Assembly (NCBI RefSeq): GCF_963921235.1
Contig: NC_086097.1
Location: 66,528,001-66,592,000 of the forward strand
Direction of reading: 5' to 3'
DNA: 64,000 nt
DNA from: Mobula hypostoma
Lineage: Eukaryota
Under the pieces are notes generated by a model. The model was not told the DNA's origin. It saw only the letters and a list, made by a program, of their open reading frames with translations, and searched no databases. This document shows positions 2,571 to 18,124 of this stretch, one piece after another (the first letter of the stretch is position 1; the number at the start of each line of letters is the position of its first letter). A program made the position numbers and the translations under genes.

Positions 2571-4199
2571 CAACTCAGAAGTAGTGAACAAATTGTAACT
2601 GCATTCTGCATAATGAAGTACAACCCATGTATTTCAAAGCTTAGTTACTAAAGGGTTCTTTTTCAGTGAACAGTTACCAGTGTGAAAGATAAAATAAATA
2701 AAACCAATAAAGTATGACTGTGACTATGACTATGACAGGTAAGTAACTGCTTTATATTTAAATAAATAGATAACCCTGGAAAAGTATTAAATCTACTTCA
2801 AGTCTAATACTTTTTGCCTGGATAGTGGCCCACATCCACAAGATATTCATTATATCTTGGTGATATTTAATAATTAAATGTCATTATATTAATAATAAGA
2901 TTTTACTCTGACTTTCTAGTACAATTTAAGTATTTGTTTTAAAAAGATTGAACATACAGGTGTGGATAGGTTTCATTTACCAATTTGTTGTTAATTATTA
3001 GATCTTCCTTGTGTTGTTTTGCTTATTAATTATAATTTTGACACAGTTATTTGATGTTAGTTCATGTTTTCAATTCACACATTTATGGAAGTTACCAATA
3101 CTTTACAAGATCTGTTAAATAACAACAACTGACATTTATACCATGCCTTTAATATAGTAAAACTTCAGTAAATATGTCAGGGGGATATTATCACACAGCC
3201 AGATACATAAATAGATTTCAGAGCATATGCATAGTTGAAGTGAAATGTTTTAAAGAATGACACTTAGGATGAAAGGGGTAAAGTGGCAGAGTTGTTTCAA
3301 GCAAGTTGCAGAGCCTAGAGGTGAGACACTAAAGGCAGAGCCACAGGTAGTTTGTCTTGCATCAAGGATCATTAAATAGTTTAAAAATTGGAAGAATCAA
3401 AATGTAACCTTTGCTTTCTTTCACTTCTCCTTTCCAAACATGTCATAATAATAATGGGAAAAATTCTTCCCTTAACCTCATTTGCTCCAAGACCAACTCA
3501 GCCTAACTTTGTAACTAAGGTCCCCCATTCCAGGATTAATTCTCGTAAATATCTGCATTCTTTTAAGGACATTGATATTTGCCAACGTGCCATTGGTAAA
3601 TACTCTCTCAAAAATGTCTGCACCTTCAAAGGCCTTAAATAATAGGTCTCTCTTTCCTGGTATACTGTTTACTGCTATTAATTTACATTGCCTTTCTTAG
3701 ATATTTGCAGATATTTTTGAGGATGGTTGGACAGGAATAGATAAAGTGATGGAAAGGGTGAACTTGTTGGAGAGGCTTGAAAACAAGGATAAGTATTTTA
3801 TAACTGAGCTATTCATTAACAGGAAGCCAAGACAGAGCAGAAGCTACTGGGTGATAGGTGAATGGGACTTTGTTCCAGTTAGGATAAAGGCTGGTGAGTT
3901 GTGGATAAGCTTAAGTTTATTAAAGATGGAGGAAGAGAAAACAGCCTGGAATGCTTTTAAGTAATTAAGTTCAGAAATAACAAAGGTTTATACAACTGTT
4001 TCAGCAGAAGCTAAGATGAGGCAAGGTGGAATTAGGGAATTTCCAAGTGAAAATTGGTATCACAATGATCTTGCATCTGTTCACCCATGCTTTAAATAGT
4101 CAAACAACAGGAATTCTGCAGATGCTGGAAATTCAAGCAACATACATCAAAGTTGCTGGTGAACGCAGCAGGCCAAGCAGCATCTGTAGGAAGAGGTGC

Positions 4200-4235
4200 A
4201 GTCGACGTTTCAGGCCGAGACCCTTCGTCAGGACT
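4200..4235 (-). ncRNA. Minimal type I hammerhead ribozyme, intact core
   Basis: Minus strand reads AGTC-CTGACGA-AGG gtctcgg CCT-GAAAC-GTC-GACT: CUGANGA and GAAA core, stem I AGTC/GACT, stem II AGG/CCT, palindromic ACGT stem III. Confidence 0.85.
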
Positions 4236-5118
4236 AACTGAAGGAAGAGTGAGTAAGGGATTTGAAAGTTGGAAGGGGAGGGGGAGATCCAAAATGATAG
4301 GAGAAGACAGGAGGGGGAGGGATAGAGCTGAGAGCTGGACAGGTGATAGGCAAAAGGGGATACGAGAGGATCATGGGACAGGAGGTCCGGGAAGAAAGAC
4401 GGGGGGGGGGTGACCCAGAGGATGGGCAAGAGGTATATTCAGAGGGACAGAGGGAGAAAAAGGAGAGTGAGAGAAAGAATGTGTGCATAAAAATGAGTAA
4501 CAGATGGGGTACGAGGGGGAGGTGGGGCCTTAGCGGAAGTTAGAGAAGTCGATGTTCATGCCATCAGGTTGGAGGCTACCCAGACGGAATATAAGGTGTT
4601 GTTCCTCCAACCTGAGTGTGGCTTCATCTTTACAGTAGAGGAGGCCGTGGATAGACATGTCAGAATGGGAATGGGATGTGGAATTAAAATGTGTTACAGT
4701 AGAGGAGGCCTCCTCTACTGTAAAGATGAAGCCACACTCAGGTTGGAGGAACAACACCTTATATTCCGTCTGGGTAGCCTCCAACCTGATGGCATGAACA
4801 TTGACTTCTCTAACTTCCGCTAAGGCCCCACCTCCCCCTCGTACCCCATCTGTTACTCATTTTTATGCACACATTCTTTCTCTCACTCTCCTTTTTCTCC
4901 CTCTGTCCCTCTGAATATACCTCTTGCCCATCCTCTGGGTCACCCCCCCCCTTGTCTTTCTTCGCGGACCTCCTGTCCCATGATCCTCTCATATCCCCTT
5001 TTGCCTATCACCTGTCCAGCTCTCGGCTCTATCCCTCCCCCTCCTGTCTTCTCCTATCATTTTGCATCTCCCCCTCCCCCTCCAACTTTCAAATCCCTTA
5101 CTCACTCTTCCTTCAGTT

Positions 5119-5154
5119 AGTCCTGACGAAGGGTCTCGGCCTGAAACATCGACT
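5119..5154 (+). ncRNA. Minimal hammerhead ribozyme, CpG-mutated (GAAACATC)
   Basis: AGTC-CTGACGA-AGGGTCTCGGCCT-GAAAC-ATC-GACT; the stem III palindrome is broken by a G>A change. Confidence 0.75.
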
Positions 5155-5864
5155 GCACCTCTTCCTACAGATGCTGCTTGGCCTGCTGCGTTCACCAGCA
5201 ACTTTGATGTATGTTGCTTTAAATAGTCAAGATCACTTTCAGGACAGTTGCCAGACTAAGGGAAGTTATTGGCAACAAAAGAATTGCATTGGTAGAACAA
5301 AAGCTTTTTAACTAAAAAGAAAATCCATTCTACTTCCAGTACTGAATGAACAAGAAGTAGCCTAACTATATGGAGTACTTGCAGGGTTCAAAGCAAATGA
5401 TGAAGGAGAGCTGAGTGTTATAGGTGGCCTAGAAATTAGAAATGCTTTTGACCTACAGTCAATCTAAATTTCAGATTGGACAAAAAATAATTCGAGCTAT
5501 CTCTATTCATGGGCATACAAGTTGCAACAATGGGTGGTTTCCACCTATTTCCTCAGTACAAGGTTTAGTTTCCACGTTGACAGTGCAAAAAAAAGGATAT
5601 ACTGAAGTATTGGAAATTGGAACAACAATGAAACAGTTAAATTGTCCAATGCACTTTTTGCTCCATTACTTCACCAGCTAATTAGCAAAACAGAAAATTT
5701 ATCTCCCCACACCATCACTATCTATTCATATCCTTAAACTAATTTTGCCCTAGTTCTCCAGAAAGCATGCAAGATTATGCATTACATTTTTAGCCCTACA
5801 CAATTAAAACCATATGCATAAAATATCAAATTAATAAAGCATGCTTACATATTTGAATAGATAT

Positions 5865-11965: not shown

Positions 11966-13106
11966 GTGAAAGTTAATGTCATGAAGTCAAACAACCAAAA
12001 TAAGTGAAGCTCCTAGAGCTGTAGCTGTTGCTTCTCCAACTATATATAAAAAAAGACAGATCTTGGTTATAGGCCTGTCCAGACAGCTGGTTTTGGTCTT
12101 GACGCACCTGCCACATAAATCCTCTTCTGCCTGGAAAGGGTTGCATAACTCTTCCTCTTATCCATGAATTGTGAGGCGCTGTATCATCAATTATAAGCAC
12201 AATGTCTCCTGGGAGGAAATTGCACTTTATACCTGACTATTTCTGACATTCCTGTAACTGTGGTAAGTACTCCTTAACCCACCATTTCCAAAACAGGTTT
12301 GACATATATTAGACCTGCTTCCATCTATGATGAGCATAAATGTCTTACTTTTGGAACTCTCCTGGTGACAAGGGTGGTGAGAAGCAACAAATGGTTGGGT
12401 ATAGTGCATCCAAGTCATTGGGATCAAAGGATGCCTTTGTAATTGGAACACCATTGATAACAGCCTGTACTTCACAAATGACTGTGAAAACCAACTGTGT
12501 CAAGGTTTTGTATATTTATGCTGGAAGTGATGCTCTTTCGCGCAGACCTGATCAATCTCTCCCATGTTCCCCCATAATGTGAGCCAGCTGGGGAGTTAAA
12601 AATCCACTTAATTTCTTTCTGAAGAAGGACATCACTGATCTACGAATGGTTCCACTTGTCGTCGGAAATCCAGTATTTTTAGCACAACCTGGACAACACA
12701 TGGTTATGCCCACCATGTTCCATCTCCTAATGTAAATTCCTCAGAAAGATGTCTGAGATATGGAGATTCTTTGCCACTATAACAGTTTGCTTAGACTCTT
12801 CAGGCATAGCTGACCTACTAAGTCGTCAACCTACGCTCAAGATATCATCTTGAAGTTCTGAATTGAGCTTGAAAAATATGGCTGTTCCTTTTCAGTTTCT
12901 CCCCTTTACAAACTTGAGAATTCATCTGGAAATCTTTTTCTTTGACAAAATCCAGTGATCTCCATTTCAGTCTCTCTGAGCTCCTCCACTGAGAGACAAC
13001 CTCAGCCGATCTGACCTTTGGCCCTTTCCATCTCTCTCTCTCTTTCCCCCCCCCCCCCCCAAAGAATGCCTTTGTTTTTCATACAAATCAGACAGGGCAA
13101 GTGTGA

Positions 13107-13203
13107 GTTAGTCCTGACGAAGGGTCTCGGCCTGAAACGTCGACTGCACCTCTTCCTACAGATGCTGCTTGGCCTGCTGCGTTCACCAGCAACTTTGATG
13201 TAT
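13107..13203 (+). mobile_element. 97-bp PLE-derived insertion made mainly of a hammerhead ribozyme
   Basis: 13-bp TSD agggcaagtgtga at 13094-13106 and 13204-13216; intact hammerhead at 13110-13145. Confidence 0.9.
13110..13145 (+). ncRNA. Minimal type I hammerhead ribozyme, intact core
   Basis: AGTC-CTGACGA-AGGGTCTCGGCCT-GAAAC-GTC-GACT; predicted cleavage after C13141. Confidence 0.85.
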
Positions 13204-13859
13204 AGGGCAAGTGTGATGGTCAATTGCTTCCTCTTCTGACTGAGAAACAAGAGCAGGTTCTTAAATCTAAGAATCCAGGCCACTGTCTTCCTCAACAGGT
13301 CCAAGACAAGAAGTGATGGTTTCTATATGTTATTGCATCCACCTCTTCTTCAGTCTGCATAGCACTCACTGTAACAGTACTCTTGACTTCCAGATCATCT
13401 AGCAGGAGTTCTCCACAACAATCAGAAATATTTCTTCTTAAGCTGAAGATGATATTAAGGCCCTGACACCCATGTCTTATTCTTCAGGAATGTTTCCACC
13501 TTCAACCCTCTAGAGGCCACATTTGCCAGATTGCTTGAAGTATTTACATACCTCCATTGAGAAGCCTGTGAGATCTTAAGAATTTCTGAAACCCTGTTTG
13601 CAACAAAGGTTCAGAACCTGGAAGTTTTCTTCTTAATATACTTCAGTACAGAAGTAATATCAGTCCAAAAAACTGAGTAATGAAGCTGCATGTGTAATTC
13701 CTTCCTCCACAATGTGTTTACTTTGTGAGTCAAAAACCAGCCTTAGCACAGATGAATACAAGGTCATGATTGTGAGACACCACTTTTCCCCCAGAGGATA
13801 CGGACACAAGGCAATCATAACATAAGAAGCAATGCAAAACCTAATCAACAGGAATTCTG

Positions 13860-14737
13860 GGAATGGTTACTGCCGGTGGAAAGGGCTAGTAGTCCTACTT
13901 CCTCCCTATGGGGAATCGTGATTTCCGGTGGAATGGGATGTCAAATTTGTCTTGGCGTTGGATTGTTCTTAACGGAGATCGTGAGCTTAAGTCAGACCAT
14001 ATGACATGCACCATGACTAAGAACACGGTGATGGGTCATTGTCGTGAATTTTACTCTGTGTGCCTGTCTTCACTGAACATACCCGGACAGGCCAGGATAC
14101 GCCAGGAAGCTATGGCACTTTATAATAGCAACTAGTCACAACATATTTCTTACCCGACTGTTGCTCCTTTCCTCTAGCCGTCCATGAATGTTTGCAAGAC
14201 ATCAATTGTCAGCCGGATCGTTAAACTGCAAATGTTTCTTGCAAACATCTTGTGACCCTTCGAGCTGATCAAATTCAGCAGCCTTTCATTTTCCTCTGTC
14301 CAGAGACCTCTCGCTCCAACCACGAAACCATAGTACTCTACTGACTGTGCACCTGTAAGCTCTTTAATCTGGCGTGTGAGATGTTTATATTTCTCCTCCT
14401 TCTCCTTCCACGCCTTTTCTAGGGACCGATGGTTGTCCTCGTATCTGATGGTCACGTCGACTACAGCCGCTTTCCCTCTCTTAACAAAGATTAGGTCCGG
14501 CTTCCATAGCGATCCGTCCTCTGTTCTTATATGAGGTTCGACGTACGCATCCCATCCATGCTTGCAGGCTTGGTTTTTCAGTCTTTCAGCCACCTTGTCG
14601 TGCCTCTTAATCCGGCTCCTTTTCACATCTACCGGAGATGTGGGCCAGGGTCTCGTTGGCTATACCACATCTCCTACAGGTTTTTACTCGATCTTTGTCT
14701 CCTTTATTTCTTGTACAACGTGTCGGATACTGTCTGT
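13860..14737 (-). mobile_element. R2-type non-LTR retrotransposon 3' fragment (CCHC finger, restriction-like endonuclease, 3' UTR)
   Basis: YPTR..CRRCGIANETLAHISGRC, then ORF 14174-14626 with RIKRH..EPHIR..KPDLIFVK..VVDVTIRYE..EKYKHL..GARGLW, typical of the R2 endonuclease domain. Confidence 0.88.
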
Positions 14738-14988
14738 GGACCTCCTGTCCCATGATCCTCTCGTATCCCCTTTTGCCTATCACCTGTCCAGCTCTCAGCT
14801 CTATCCCTCCCCCTCCTGTCTTCTCCTATCATTTTACATCTCCCCCTCCCCCTCCAGCTTTCAAATCCCTTACTCACTCTTCCTTCAGTTAGTCCTGACG
14901 AAGGGTCTCGGCCTGAAACGTCGACTGCGCCTCTTCCTATAGATGCTGCTTGGCCTGCTGCGTTCACCAGCAACTTTGATGTATGTTG
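14738..14988 (+). mobile_element. PLE pLTR arm joined in inverted orientation to the R2 fragment
   Basis: Nearly identical to 4966-5216; contains an intact hammerhead at 14891-14926. Confidence 0.9.
14891..14926 (+). ncRNA. Minimal type I hammerhead ribozyme, intact core
   Basis: Same 36-nt motif as 13110-13145. Confidence 0.85.
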
Positions 14989-15869
14989 TGTTACGAGAAT
15001 ACACATAAAATTAAGATGTTTGCTGGCCTGGGCTAGCATCAGTGGCATCAGCAGTTGGTCTGCCACCTGCCCTCAGGGGAAGGAGAGATAAGGAACAATG
15101 GAGCAGCGTCTGGAGATGTGTAATGAAGGGATGTGGGAGGAAGAGCTGTCTGGAGCGGCTCCCCCCTTTGAACCCTGAACTGTTTGAAGTGATGGACAGG
15201 CGATACCCCAGCAGGGGGATAAAAAGGGACAGGTTCGCTAAGACAGACACACACGCCACCCGAGGTAACGAGACCCTGGAAGCGGTGCGCTTCTCACGAG
15301 TGGGTGAGAAGTCCCAGACAACGACAAGGGTGGAAAGGTACGATCAGCGGGAACCCGGTGTGTGTCCGCCCTTGCCTGGGTGCCGGGTTCACTGCAGAGG
15401 ATCGACCGCATCTGGAGGAGGGGTCACAGTCGGTGACCTCAGGTGACATCACCAAGGACCCGCCCAAAAGGCTGTTTGTGAGCCATCTCGCTGGTCTGTG
15501 AGCCATCTTGCTGGTCTGTGAGTGAAGCCGTTCTGAATGATGAGTTGTTCCTATTCTATCTCTCTCTTCCCCCACGTTGTCCACCGCCATGGCAACGATT
15601 ACTGCGAACTGAACTACTGAACTGGACTGAACTTTGAGTCATTTTGAAATTGGTCATTTACCCCTAGACAACGATAGAGCTTGATTGATGCTGTTATCTT
15701 AATTCTGTGCACATGTGTGTTTATCATCACTGAACTGTTGCATTTATTATCCTTTCGATTACTGTGTTGCTTGTTTCTTTAATAAAACTTTCTTAGTTCT
15801 AGTACTCCAGACTCCAACTGAGTGATCCATTTCTGCTGGTTTGGCAACCCAGTTACGGGGTACGTAACA
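14989..15869 (+). mobile_element. Solo LTR (Gypsy/ERV-like)
   Basis: TGTTACG..CGTAACA termini; 4-bp TSD gttg at 14985-14988 and 15870-15873; AATAAA at 15781. Confidence 0.85.
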
Positions 15870-15900
15870 GTTGCAAAACCTAATCCAATGTCTCTCAGCT

Positions 15901-15979
15901 TAATTGTTCTTCATAGAACAATTAAGAACAATTGTTCTTCATAGAACAATTAAGAACAATTGTTCTTCATAGAACAATT
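15901..15979. repeat. 28-bp tandem repeat, about 2.7 copies, with internal palindrome
   Basis: Unit aattgttcttcatagaacaattaagaac. Confidence 0.85.
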
Positions 15980-16404
15980 GGCAAAGCTTGGTGATAACGT
16001 TGATCCAAACACATGTACTACTATTTTAAAGTCCACCATATCTTGGTTGAGGTCACCATCAGCCCACCAGAGAAACCTCAGCAGATCTTCATCTTCCACT
16101 AGTACTTTAACCAGATGAAACATTGATTCAATATCTGCCATTATCACCCTGGATTTTTCTGAATCTGGTCATGACTCCAATCAGTGAGCTAGTAAGATGT
16201 GGTCCCTGAAAGAGCAGAGGCATAATGAGTGATTTTTTTTTTTTTTTTTTTGAAAAGTTGCTCCACAGTTCTACTCAATACGAAGTTCCTATTTTCTGGG
16301 GTGGTAAACACTATGGTGTGGATATACTTGACTTTCCGATTACTGTGTTCCAGATCCTCTGCAGGCACTCTTTTGACATATCTTCCAGAATAATCTTCCA
16401 GAAA

Positions 16405-18124
16405 TAAGGAGGACATAAATAATCTTCCAGAAATAGTAAGGGACAGAGGGTCCAGTGAGATGGAGGAACTGAGTGAAATACATGTTAGTAGGGAAGTGGT
16501 GTTAGGTAAATTGAAGGGATTGAAGGCAGATAAATCCCCAGGGCCAGATGGTCTGCATCCTAGAGTGCTTAAGGAAGTAGCCCAAGAAATAGTGGATGCA
16601 TTAGTGATAATTTTTCAAAACTCGTTAGATTCTGGACTAGCTCCTGAGGATTGGAGGGTGGCTAATGTAACCCCACTTTTTAAAAAAGGAGGGAGAGAGA
16701 AACCGGGGAATTATAGACCGGTTAGCCTAACGTCGGTGGTGGGGAAACTGCTGGAGTCAGTTATCAAGGATGTGATAACAGCACATTTGGAAAGCGGTGA
16801 AATGATCGGACAAAGTCAGCATGGATTTGTGAAAGGAAAATCATGTCTGACGAATCTCATAGAATTTTTTGAGGATGTAACTAGTAGAGTGGATAGGGGA
16901 GAACCAGTGGATGTGGTATATTTGGATTTTCAAAAGGCTTTTGACAAGGTCCCACACAGGAGATTAGTGTGCAAACTTAAAGCACACGGTATTGGGGGTA
17001 AGGTATTGGTGTGGGTGGAGAATTGGTTAGCAGACAGGAAGCAAAGAGTGGGAATAAACGGGACCTTTTCAGAATGGCAGGCGGTGACTAGTGGGGTACC
17101 GCAAGGCTCAGTGCTGGGACCCCAGTTGTTTACAATATATATTAATGACTTGGATGAGGGAATTAAATGCAGCATCTCCAAGTTTGCGGATGACACAAAG
17201 CTGGGTGGCAGTGTTAGCAGTGAGGAGGATGCTAAGAGGATGCAGGGTGACTTGGATAGGTTGGGTGAGTGGGCAAACTCATGGCAGATGCAATTTAATG
17301 TGGATAAATGTGAAGTTATCCACTTTGGTGGCAAAAATAGGAAAACAGATTATTATCTGAATTGTGGCCGATTAGGAAAAGGGGAGGTGCAACGAGACCT
17401 GGGTGTCATTATACACCAGTCATTGAAAGTGGGCATGCAGGTACAGCAGGCGGTGAAAAAGGCGAATGGTATGCTGGCATTTATAGCGAGAGGATTCGAG
17501 TACAGGAGCAGGGAGGTACTACTGCAGTTGTACAAGGCCTTGGTGAGACCACACCTGGAGTATTGTGTGCAGTTTTGGTCCCCTAATCTGAGGAAAGACA
17601 TCTTTGCCATAGAGGGAGTACAAAGAAGGTTCACCAGATTGATTCCTGGGATGGCAGGACTTTCATATGAAGAAAGACTGAATGAACTGGGCTTGTACTC
17701 GTTGGAATTTAGAAGATTGAGGGGGGATCTGATTGAAACGTATAAGATCCTAAAGGGATTGGACAGGCTAGATGCAGGAAGATTGTTCCCGATGTTGGGG
17801 AAGTCCAGAACGAGGGGTCACAGTTTGAGGATAGAGGGGAAGCCTTTTAGGACCGAGATTAGGAAAAACTTCTTTACACAGAGAGTGGTGAATCTGTGGA
17901 ATTCTCTGCCACAGGAAACTGTTGAGGCCAGTTCACTGGCTATATTTAAGAGGGAGTTAGATATGGCCCTTGTGGCTACAGGGGTTAGGGGGTATGGAGG
18001 GAAGGCTGGGGCGGGGTTCTGAGTTGGATGATCAGCCATGATCATAATAAATGGCGGTGCAGGCTCGAAGGGCCGAATGGCCTACTCCTGCACCTATTTT
18101 CTATGTTTCTATGTATGTTTCTAT
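16405..18124 (+). mobile_element. Young 5'-truncated CR1 LINE
   Basis: Uninterrupted RT ORF, 3' UTR and (ttctatgt)n tail. Confidence 0.92.
16460..18022 (+). CDS. CR1 ORF2 reverse transcriptase and C-terminal region (open frame, endonuclease missing)
   Basis: 520-aa ORF with [32 protein letters not shown] and KFADDTK. Confidence 0.85.
   Translation: MEELSEIHVSREVVLGKLKGLKADKSPGPDGLHPRVLKEVAQEIVDALVIIFQNSLDSGLAPEDWRVANVTPLFKKGGREKPGNYRPVSLTSVVGKLLESVIKDVITAHLESGEMIGQSQHGFVKGKSCLTNLIEFFEDVTSRVDRGEPVDVVYLDFQKAFDKVPHRRLVCKLKAHGIGGKVLVWVENWLADRKQRVGINGTFSEWQAVTSGVPQGSVLGPQLFTIYINDLDEGIKCSISKFADDTKLGGSVSSEEDAKRMQGDLDRLGEWANSWQMQFNVDKCEVIHFGGKNRKTDYYLNCGRLGKGEVQRDLGVIIHQSLKVGMQVQQAVKKANGMLAFIARGFEYRSREVLLQLYKALVRPHLEYCVQFWSPNLRKDIFAIEGVQRRFTRLIPGMAGLSYEERLNELGLYSLEFRRLRGDLIETYKILKGLDRLDAGRLFPMLGKSRTRGHSLRIEGKPFRTEIRKNFFTQRVVNLWNSLPQETVEASSLAIFKRELDMALVATGVRGYGGKAGAGF

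Follow-up and report, generated by a model that had tools for sequence, protein, structure and literature searches.

The genome of Mobula hypostoma carries an internal piece of an R2 retrotransposon enclosed between ends of a Penelope-like element (PLE), away from ribosomal DNA (rDNA), and at least 15 separate PLE-R2 hybrids, this one included, are present in the genome. The window (the whole 64-kb stretch of DNA analysed) contains the unit described here between positions 13833 and 15885. Very probably it is a single insertion made by PLE with R2 as its cargo, no matter which enzyme copied the R2 sequence. The favoured account of its origin, given a probability of about 0.5, is a template jump, in which priming from both nicked strands would have been followed by a jump of the PLE enzyme onto R2 RNA. 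The parts of the insertion and of its flanks are:

13721 to 13846, minus strand: host flank, downstream half of a decayed BEL/Pao reverse-transcriptase region, collinear over the insertion with the upstream half (P0019 aa 841-883, matching at 13849-13721; P0025 aa 1041-1080)
13833 to 13846, no strand: left copy of the 14-bp target-site duplication, an exact repeat
13847 to 13859, minus strand: PLE tail-end stub of 13 nt (outer reverse-transcription start site), identical to 4106-4118
13860 to 14173, minus strand: R2 3' UTR, broken off 145 nt before the natural 3' end (L002, L019 and L020 run past 13860; L047 and L048 end at the 28S target)
14174 to 14659, minus strand: open frame of 161 aa with the R2 restriction-like endonuclease and stop codon (structure matches 9nl2, 4e-35, 9nl3 and 9dou)
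14625 to 14678, minus strand: CCHC zinc knuckle of R2, in a different frame from the endonuclease (translation; read contigs)
14735 to 14737, no strand: junction filler of 2-3 nt between R2 (last base 14734) and the PLE arm
14738 to 14988, plus strand: PLE terminal-repeat arm of 251 nt, stopping at the inner start site, with 97.2-97.6% identity to the PLE palindrome at 4104-5222
14891 to 14926, plus strand: predicted minimal hammerhead ribozyme motif (core 14895-14922 by pattern; predicted cut after 14922)
14989 to 15869, no strand: later solo LTR of 881 bp from a high-copy family (read depth), with its own 4-bp duplication (14985-14988 and 15870-15873)
15872 to 15885, no strand: right copy of the 14-bp target-site duplication, an exact repeat
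15886 to 16321, minus strand: host flank, upstream half of the same BEL/Pao region (homologues with PF05380/PF03564; P0019 aa 712-826, matching at 16321-15965)

A first-pass annotation had proposed that the unit is bounded by a 14-bp repeat, starts with the extreme PLE end and was later interrupted by a solo LTR with its own target-site duplication. All of this was borne out by comparison, and the LTR has the termini TG...CA. The first three bases of the right 14-bp copy overlap the PLE inner end, as they do at 5215. In the window the 10-nt core of the tail word occurs in three places only, the other two being PLE ends. At the tail/R2 junction there is 1 nt of microhomology, base 13859 being common to the PLE stub and the R2 donor. 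The alternative that the natural 3' end of R2 itself contains the tail word falls away, as donor R2 carries no PLE tail word there.

BEL/Pao matches on either side of the unit are 10 to 14 residues apart, which is approximately the content of the intervening flank; P0025, for example, matches with aa 913-1030 and then aa 1041-1080, a gap of 10 residues. As the BEL/Pao frame resumes over the unit with so small a gap, the insertion was into continuous sequence, and the unit split an old reading frame with little or no loss of flank. The single target-site duplication and the continuous host frame uphold the earlier proposal that a PLE-made insertion placed R2 sequence outside rDNA. No paralogous empty site was present among the loci examined. 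At the left junction, an X1 contig (this run may be that of the assembled sample) covers 13599-13888 with 0 differences and so takes in the flank, the tail and 29 nt of the R2 piece. Among the read contigs listed, none bridges the right-hand junctions. In run X11, joints leave at 13846 with undefined sequence between them and may be other BEL/Pao copies.

The R2 piece (13860-14734, 875 nt, minus strand) is, by its predicted protein, true R2 with an affinity to vertebrate R2 proteins. All five solved-structure matches of the 161-aa frame are R2 proteins; three of the five are named so, and the two 'reverse transcriptase-like' entries are presumably Bombyx R2. Pfam gave no name for the endonuclease piece. 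A frameshift lies between the CCHC finger and the endonuclease, and contigs of runs X5 (possibly RNA) and X11 have 8 extra bases after 14617. The cargo had previously been described as an R2 3' end; its identity as R2, its strand, the endonuclease and the CCHC finger stand, and the 3' end does not, since the piece is internal. In L002, L019 and L020, R2 extends beyond window position 13860, with the natural 3' end 145 nt further on. Two dispersed copies with 82-84% identity to the window piece (L047 and L048) run directly into 28S, for 226 and 76 nt, placing the 3' end of the family against the 28S target site. The window piece differs from a canonical R2 insertion in stopping short of that end and in lying inside a BEL/Pao relic.

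There is no other R2 match in the window, and the nearest on the contig, among the matches listed, is 45 Mb away. A search for full-length R2 in the assembled rDNA units on C50 gave no match. Read depth in run X1 is 35-45 for contigs that are identical to the R2 piece and 7-8 for the flank (approximately five-fold), and in a related species the depths are about 1300 and 50. This excess suggests unassembled rDNA copies and recent capture. Over 327 nt the window piece shows 0 differences from current R2 contigs. The insertion itself is a dead-end product, as it is without the 5' part and the 3' end of R2, is frameshifted and has no copies of itself.

In each of the PLE palindromes at 4104 and 37778, a tail end is paired with an end that is about 33 nt shorter; their target-site duplications measure 16 and 11 bp, and the unit has the same layout, as the first-pass annotation had said. 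Two start sites and extension of both strands, as reported for the Anolis PLE, would produce such a pairing of tail end and short end. A near full-length copy elsewhere in the genome (L067, 1356-5214) has pseudo-LTRs in partial tandem and a frameshifted frame; a Pfam search of this frameshifted copy returned 0 matches, and it aligns with P0014 aa 86-848 at 42-48% identity. P0014 gives weak scores for RVT_1 (1e-5) and GIY-YIG (2e-4), both slightly below their curated cut-offs. The partial tandem of L067 and the palindromes at 4104 and 37778 agree with the pseudo-LTR arrangement of endonuclease-bearing (EN+) PLEs, which is tandem or inverted with an optional 30-40-nt tail. Best protein matches of the window PLE are from rays. 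The hammerhead claimed for the inverted arm is present by pattern as a complete minimal core with a palindromic helix III, and is a predicted ribozyme. An Rfam search found no hammerhead match in the arm, and on folding of the monomer the hammerhead was not the predicted fold (z = 0.87). A minimal hammerhead motif in the pseudo-LTR is part of the PLE architecture described in the available text of PMC4209133.

The event recurs at 14 further R2 loci. With the window counted, two DNA searches and one protein search of the 3.5-Gb genome identified 52 distinct R2 loci, and 18 of the 52 have PLE sequence within 30 nt. Left out before the final count were the window itself, L155 (which has a junction in common with L007), L055 (an R2 piece inside an old PLE frame) and L063 (whose arm faces away). 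Thus 14 of the 51 other dispersed R2 loci adjoin PLE within 30 nt, where about one is expected (P = 2.4e-12); the null value, 0.021 per locus, was obtained by placing such fragments at random in 40 evenly picked stretches of 10 kb. When another region of R2 was used for a second search, 3 of 11 loci adjoined PLE (P = 0.0014).

Eight of the 14 hybrids have arms on both sides and five have one arm, while L015 has one arm plus a 20-nt repeat of the inner end. A 12-16-bp duplication closes nine of them, four with one mismatch; the same test was positive for 3 of 29 R2 pieces without arms and for 3 of 60 random pairs. No duplication was found for L046, L056, L140 and L144, and in L015 it is only 7 nt. 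Breakpoints differ in all 14. The identity of each R2 piece to the window piece (67-99%) tracks that of its arm to young PLE (78-100%), with a Spearman coefficient of 0.93 (n = 11). These matched identities indicate that cargo and arms arrived together and that capture has been long-running. Together with the differing breakpoints, the match in age leads to rejection of a chimeric family and disfavours later insertion into old palindromes.

Hybrid junctions bear on how the R2 piece was copied. Among the 15 hybrids there is no case of R2 running over the R2/28S boundary. The arm of L009 stops no more than 1 nt from the predicted hammerhead cut and meets R2 bluntly, that of L017 begins at the predicted cut, and the R2 piece of L018 begins 12 nt away from the natural R2 3' end. 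Filler of 4-20 nt, some of it templated, is present at many junctions on either side of R2 pieces. Junction microhomology, scored by exact extension, did not separate 3'-side from 5'-side joins, and mutations in older copies confound this measure.

According to the template-jump reading, the PLE protein would nick both strands 14 bp apart and RNA would be copied from both nicks. One cDNA would comprise 13 nt copied from PLE RNA before the jump to an R2 transcript, the other nick would give rise to the 251-nt arm, and the two cDNAs would be joined by end-joining repair; the solo LTR would have inserted later in the end of the arm. In this scheme we infer the RNA template, the identity of the R2-copying enzyme and the joining step, while two-strand cleavage and extension, and two start sites flanking the tail, would apply by analogy with the literature. 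The reading is favoured because the ends in L009, L017 and L018 match ends that the RNAs would have, and because there is neither crossing of the R2/28S boundary nor nearby R2 DNA. R2 is without introns, so its cargo does not itself demonstrate an RNA template, and the orientation of cargo is not diagnostic because either nick can prime. Filler at both kinds of junction weighs against a clean jump and resembles repair joining. Also counting against a jump, 37 of the 51 R2 loci have no enclosing arm, which indicates that R2 pieces scatter by another route too.

Foreign cargo is otherwise uncommon. Of 141 palindromes whose spacer measures 120-150 nt, the first 50 included none with clearly foreign spacer. 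Twelve of these 50 spacers contained at least 30 nt unmatched by the first references, and these stretches matched other PLE parts or a sister subfamily; those of L185 and L202 were assigned to PLE partly by eye. The window and 400 kb of random sequence, 464 kb in all, yielded 14 duplication-bounded PLE insertions, of which one held cargo; six further candidate duplications were set aside as chance or as lying inside PLE sequence. General promiscuous capture was rejected on these two counts. The one positive insertion, L101, contains 205 nt copied from its own flank in inverted orientation; DNA can therefore be a template, which counts against the jump reading. In a search with HSP90, four dispersed matches were obtained, two of them spanning several exons without introns; these matches come without flanks and are neutral on capture.

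Although 28S rRNA is far more abundant as RNA than R2, only 1 of 16 loci with dispersed 28S pieces (from the best 30 of 59 matches) adjoins an arm, which counts against simple jumping onto any RNA. The contrast with R2 gave p = 0.053 (Fisher) on an earlier count of 16/51 and is weaker at 14. This borderline bias towards R2 is predicted by neither RNA abundance nor rDNA copy number.

A possible, less probable account is that PLE made the staggered break and both arms, and that R2's own reverse transcriptase copied the piece, either by extending the 13-nt stub or as free R2 cDNA, before end-joining sealed it in. Capture of R2 at least as often as of the much commoner 28S would follow, weak as that contrast is. 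So would the 37 armless R2 loci, since 26 of the 29 tested are without a duplication, as repair patches would be, and the filler at both junction types points the same way. Retrotransposon sequence was reportedly captured at breaks in a study of mouse zygotes. The Bombyx R2 enzyme, moreover, jumps between templates and adds untemplated bases, as described in part of PMC8857657. Against R2's own enzyme stand the R2 pieces themselves, most of which are internal.

Copying of R2 normally starts at the R2 3' end, unlike what is seen in these pieces. The joins in L009 and L018, blunt or nearly so and placed at predicted ends of PLE RNA, also fit a continuing PLE enzyme. Taken alone, the junctions do not distinguish among a PLE-enzyme jump, a repair patch and R2's own enzyme.

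It is unlikely that R2 was copied from DNA, with a PLE-primed end invading or switching onto an R2-bearing rDNA unit. L101 provides a precedent, the introns kept in rotifer PLE cargo (PMC3846280, in part) are in keeping with DNA templates, and sequence identical to the R2 piece is present at approximately five times the flank depth in run X1. However, the only DNA-templated case is local, and among the matches listed no R2 lies near the window locus. Copying of rDNA should also yield mostly rRNA and frequent crossing between R2 and 28S, neither of which was seen.

Very unlikely is an ordinary PLE palindrome whose fragile centre later broke, losing nearly the whole left arm and gaining R2. R2 pieces do lie within older elements (L055 and L006), and in a contig from the related species four bases separate 13859 from 14891, followed by the next PLE bases; if it is from this locus, that joint also counts against the template-jump reading. 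In that contig the arm begins 153 nt further in than the window arm and runs on into PLE, so the joint probably fits a separate insertion. Cargo and arm ages match in 11 loci, and five hybrids are one-armed, so that no hairpin was possible. In the window unit, identity of the arm to young copies is 97%, and over 327 nt R2 is unchanged from current contigs. A stable chimeric non-autonomous family, SINE-like in character and also proposed in the first-pass annotation, is highly improbable, since no copies have the same internal junctions as the window (neither recurs among 43 matches), the apparent common end at query position 875 is merely the end of the query's R2 part and breakpoints differ in every other hybrid, the one repeated junction being that of L007 in L155, 24 kb away.

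The template-jump reading has relatives among other retroelements. L1 twin priming produces two cDNAs from two nicks that are joined in the middle of the insert, and U6-L1 template-switch chimeras reportedly place two RNAs within one duplication. If the template-jump reading holds, the hybrids resemble these in having two-nick cDNAs joined centrally and a two-RNA chimera in one duplication. In L1 chimeras, however, priming is by the 3' end and poly(A) of the element itself, and a whole small RNA is added at the 5' end; here each arm starts at one of two fixed internal sites, with internal R2 as cargo between the inverted arms.

Foreign sequence that lies between pLTRs of a PLE and is bounded by target duplications has been described from a rotifer, Adineta vaga, where an NRPS gene with introns and a few non-coding sequences were captured (available sections of PMC3846280; cited in part of PMC8557442). 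As there, the window has unrelated sequence between PLE terminal repeats and one target duplication, a pattern ascribed in the rotifer to mobilization in trans (PMC3846280, in part). The window thus combines foreign sequence, PLE ends, a single duplication and a continuous host, and nine further loci have a duplication. The rotifer cases are few and, in the accessible text of PMC3846280, involve host genes with introns kept. In contrast, M. hypostoma is a vertebrate, and its captured cargo consists of short internal pieces of R2, a site-specific retrotransposon of a different class. The 15 captures were separate and spread over a long period, and junctions lie at predicted ends of ribozyme and RNA.

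In PAc, the Poseidon PLE of Anolis carolinensis, cleavage and extension take place on both strands, and two start sites flank a 30-40-nt tail (excerpts of PMC11167929). Its hammerhead lies just upstream of the tail, and this arrangement matches the layout of tail end and short end in the window PLE (PMC11167929, in part). The available part of PMC11167929 describes no capture of a foreign template and no template jumping by a PLE enzyme, in which PAc differs from the process proposed here. Cartilaginous fish contain R2 of more than one lineage (PMC13188248, in part), and R2NS families outside rDNA have lost their specificity (PMC5035012, in part). The hybrids resemble R2NS in that R2 sequence lies away from 28S (PMC5035012, in part), and differ in being passive fragments of a 28S-specific family borne by the ends of another element. 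No PLE-R2 hybrid was found in the literature searched (most subscription papers, Repbase entries and supplements were outside its scope). Capture of foreign sequence by PLEs is thus known from rotifers; repeated capture of another class of retrotransposon has no precedent in the literature searched.

PLE-R2 hybrids are natural tracers, since a low-copy, recognisable cargo marks both the point at which a cDNA stopped and the partner to which it was joined. They support priming from both nicks and bear on how PLEs build inverted, tail-ended insertions, and the purified Anolis system makes the central jump step directly testable. By these insertions R2 leaves rDNA through the machinery of another element, repeatedly and over a long time, which is relevant to module swapping among retroelements and to the off-target fate of R2 RNA in retroelement-rich cells. 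A more speculative and rather doubtful extension is that two retrotransposon classes regularly meet at PLE insertion sites, where RNA-protein particles of R2 would be taken up far beyond their abundance and cDNA ends passed between PLE and R2 enzymes. If this is true, R2, otherwise locked in rDNA, would gain a long-running exit into the rest of the genome, and new domain combinations between retrotransposon classes could arise.

A PLE insertion elsewhere in the genome, at locus L101 (L101:5861-6557; G000:C67:45005861-45006557), is flanked by a 14-16-bp duplication. Enclosed in it are 205 nt of the insertion's own right flank, copied exactly but in inverted orientation, and after them comes a second PLE start; this is a DNA-templated capture. 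At another locus (L118:1501-2592), a PLE arm is joined directly to approximately 870 nt of 28S rRNA sequence. Within the window, a 98-nt PLE insertion (13094-13216), which begins at hammerhead helix I and has a 13-bp duplication, lies in the same BEL/Pao relic as the main PLE-R2 unit.

The R2 3' UTR contains a degenerate tandem repeat of approximately 50 nt (window 13860-13960; L019:1451-1526). Two dispersed R2 copies that lack their 5' part, 2.2-2.3 kb in length, lie at L047:3595-6030 and L048:3560-5917, with 226 and 76 nt, respectively, of downstream 28S attached. Both were examined for a PLE arm and a duplication, and neither was found. Two dispersed 28S copies (L116:862-1352 and L117:1063-1354) carry inserts of 490 and 290 nt, respectively, exactly at the R2 target site, which we interpret as truncated or non-autonomous R2. 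A second, divergent R2 lineage (protein identity 38% over 82 aa) extends from L053:4053 onward (G000:C166); it adjoins the 28S target, and several short stretches of upstream 28S lie close by.

The right flank of the PLE-R2 unit contains a partly self-complementary tandem 30-nt repeat (15902-15980). An open frame of 542 aa at 16394-18022 encodes a reverse transcriptase, presumably of CR1 type. Elsewhere in the genome, HSP90 stretches lacking introns across several exons (G000:C12:63064583-63065389 and C63:34009718-34010733) are probably processed pseudogenes.

Directly ahead of hammerhead helix I, a branch-point-like word is followed by a pyrimidine run and CAG, both in the window (14870-14888) and in the near full-length PLE copy (L067:1583-1602). 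The motif resembles the consensus of a 3' splice site. The inner end fell within approximately 25 nt of such a motif in 14 of the 39 PLE arms from 400 kb of randomly sampled genome sequence. According to PMC4209133, Drosophila virilis Penelope contains an intron that ends at the corresponding place, before hammerhead helix I.
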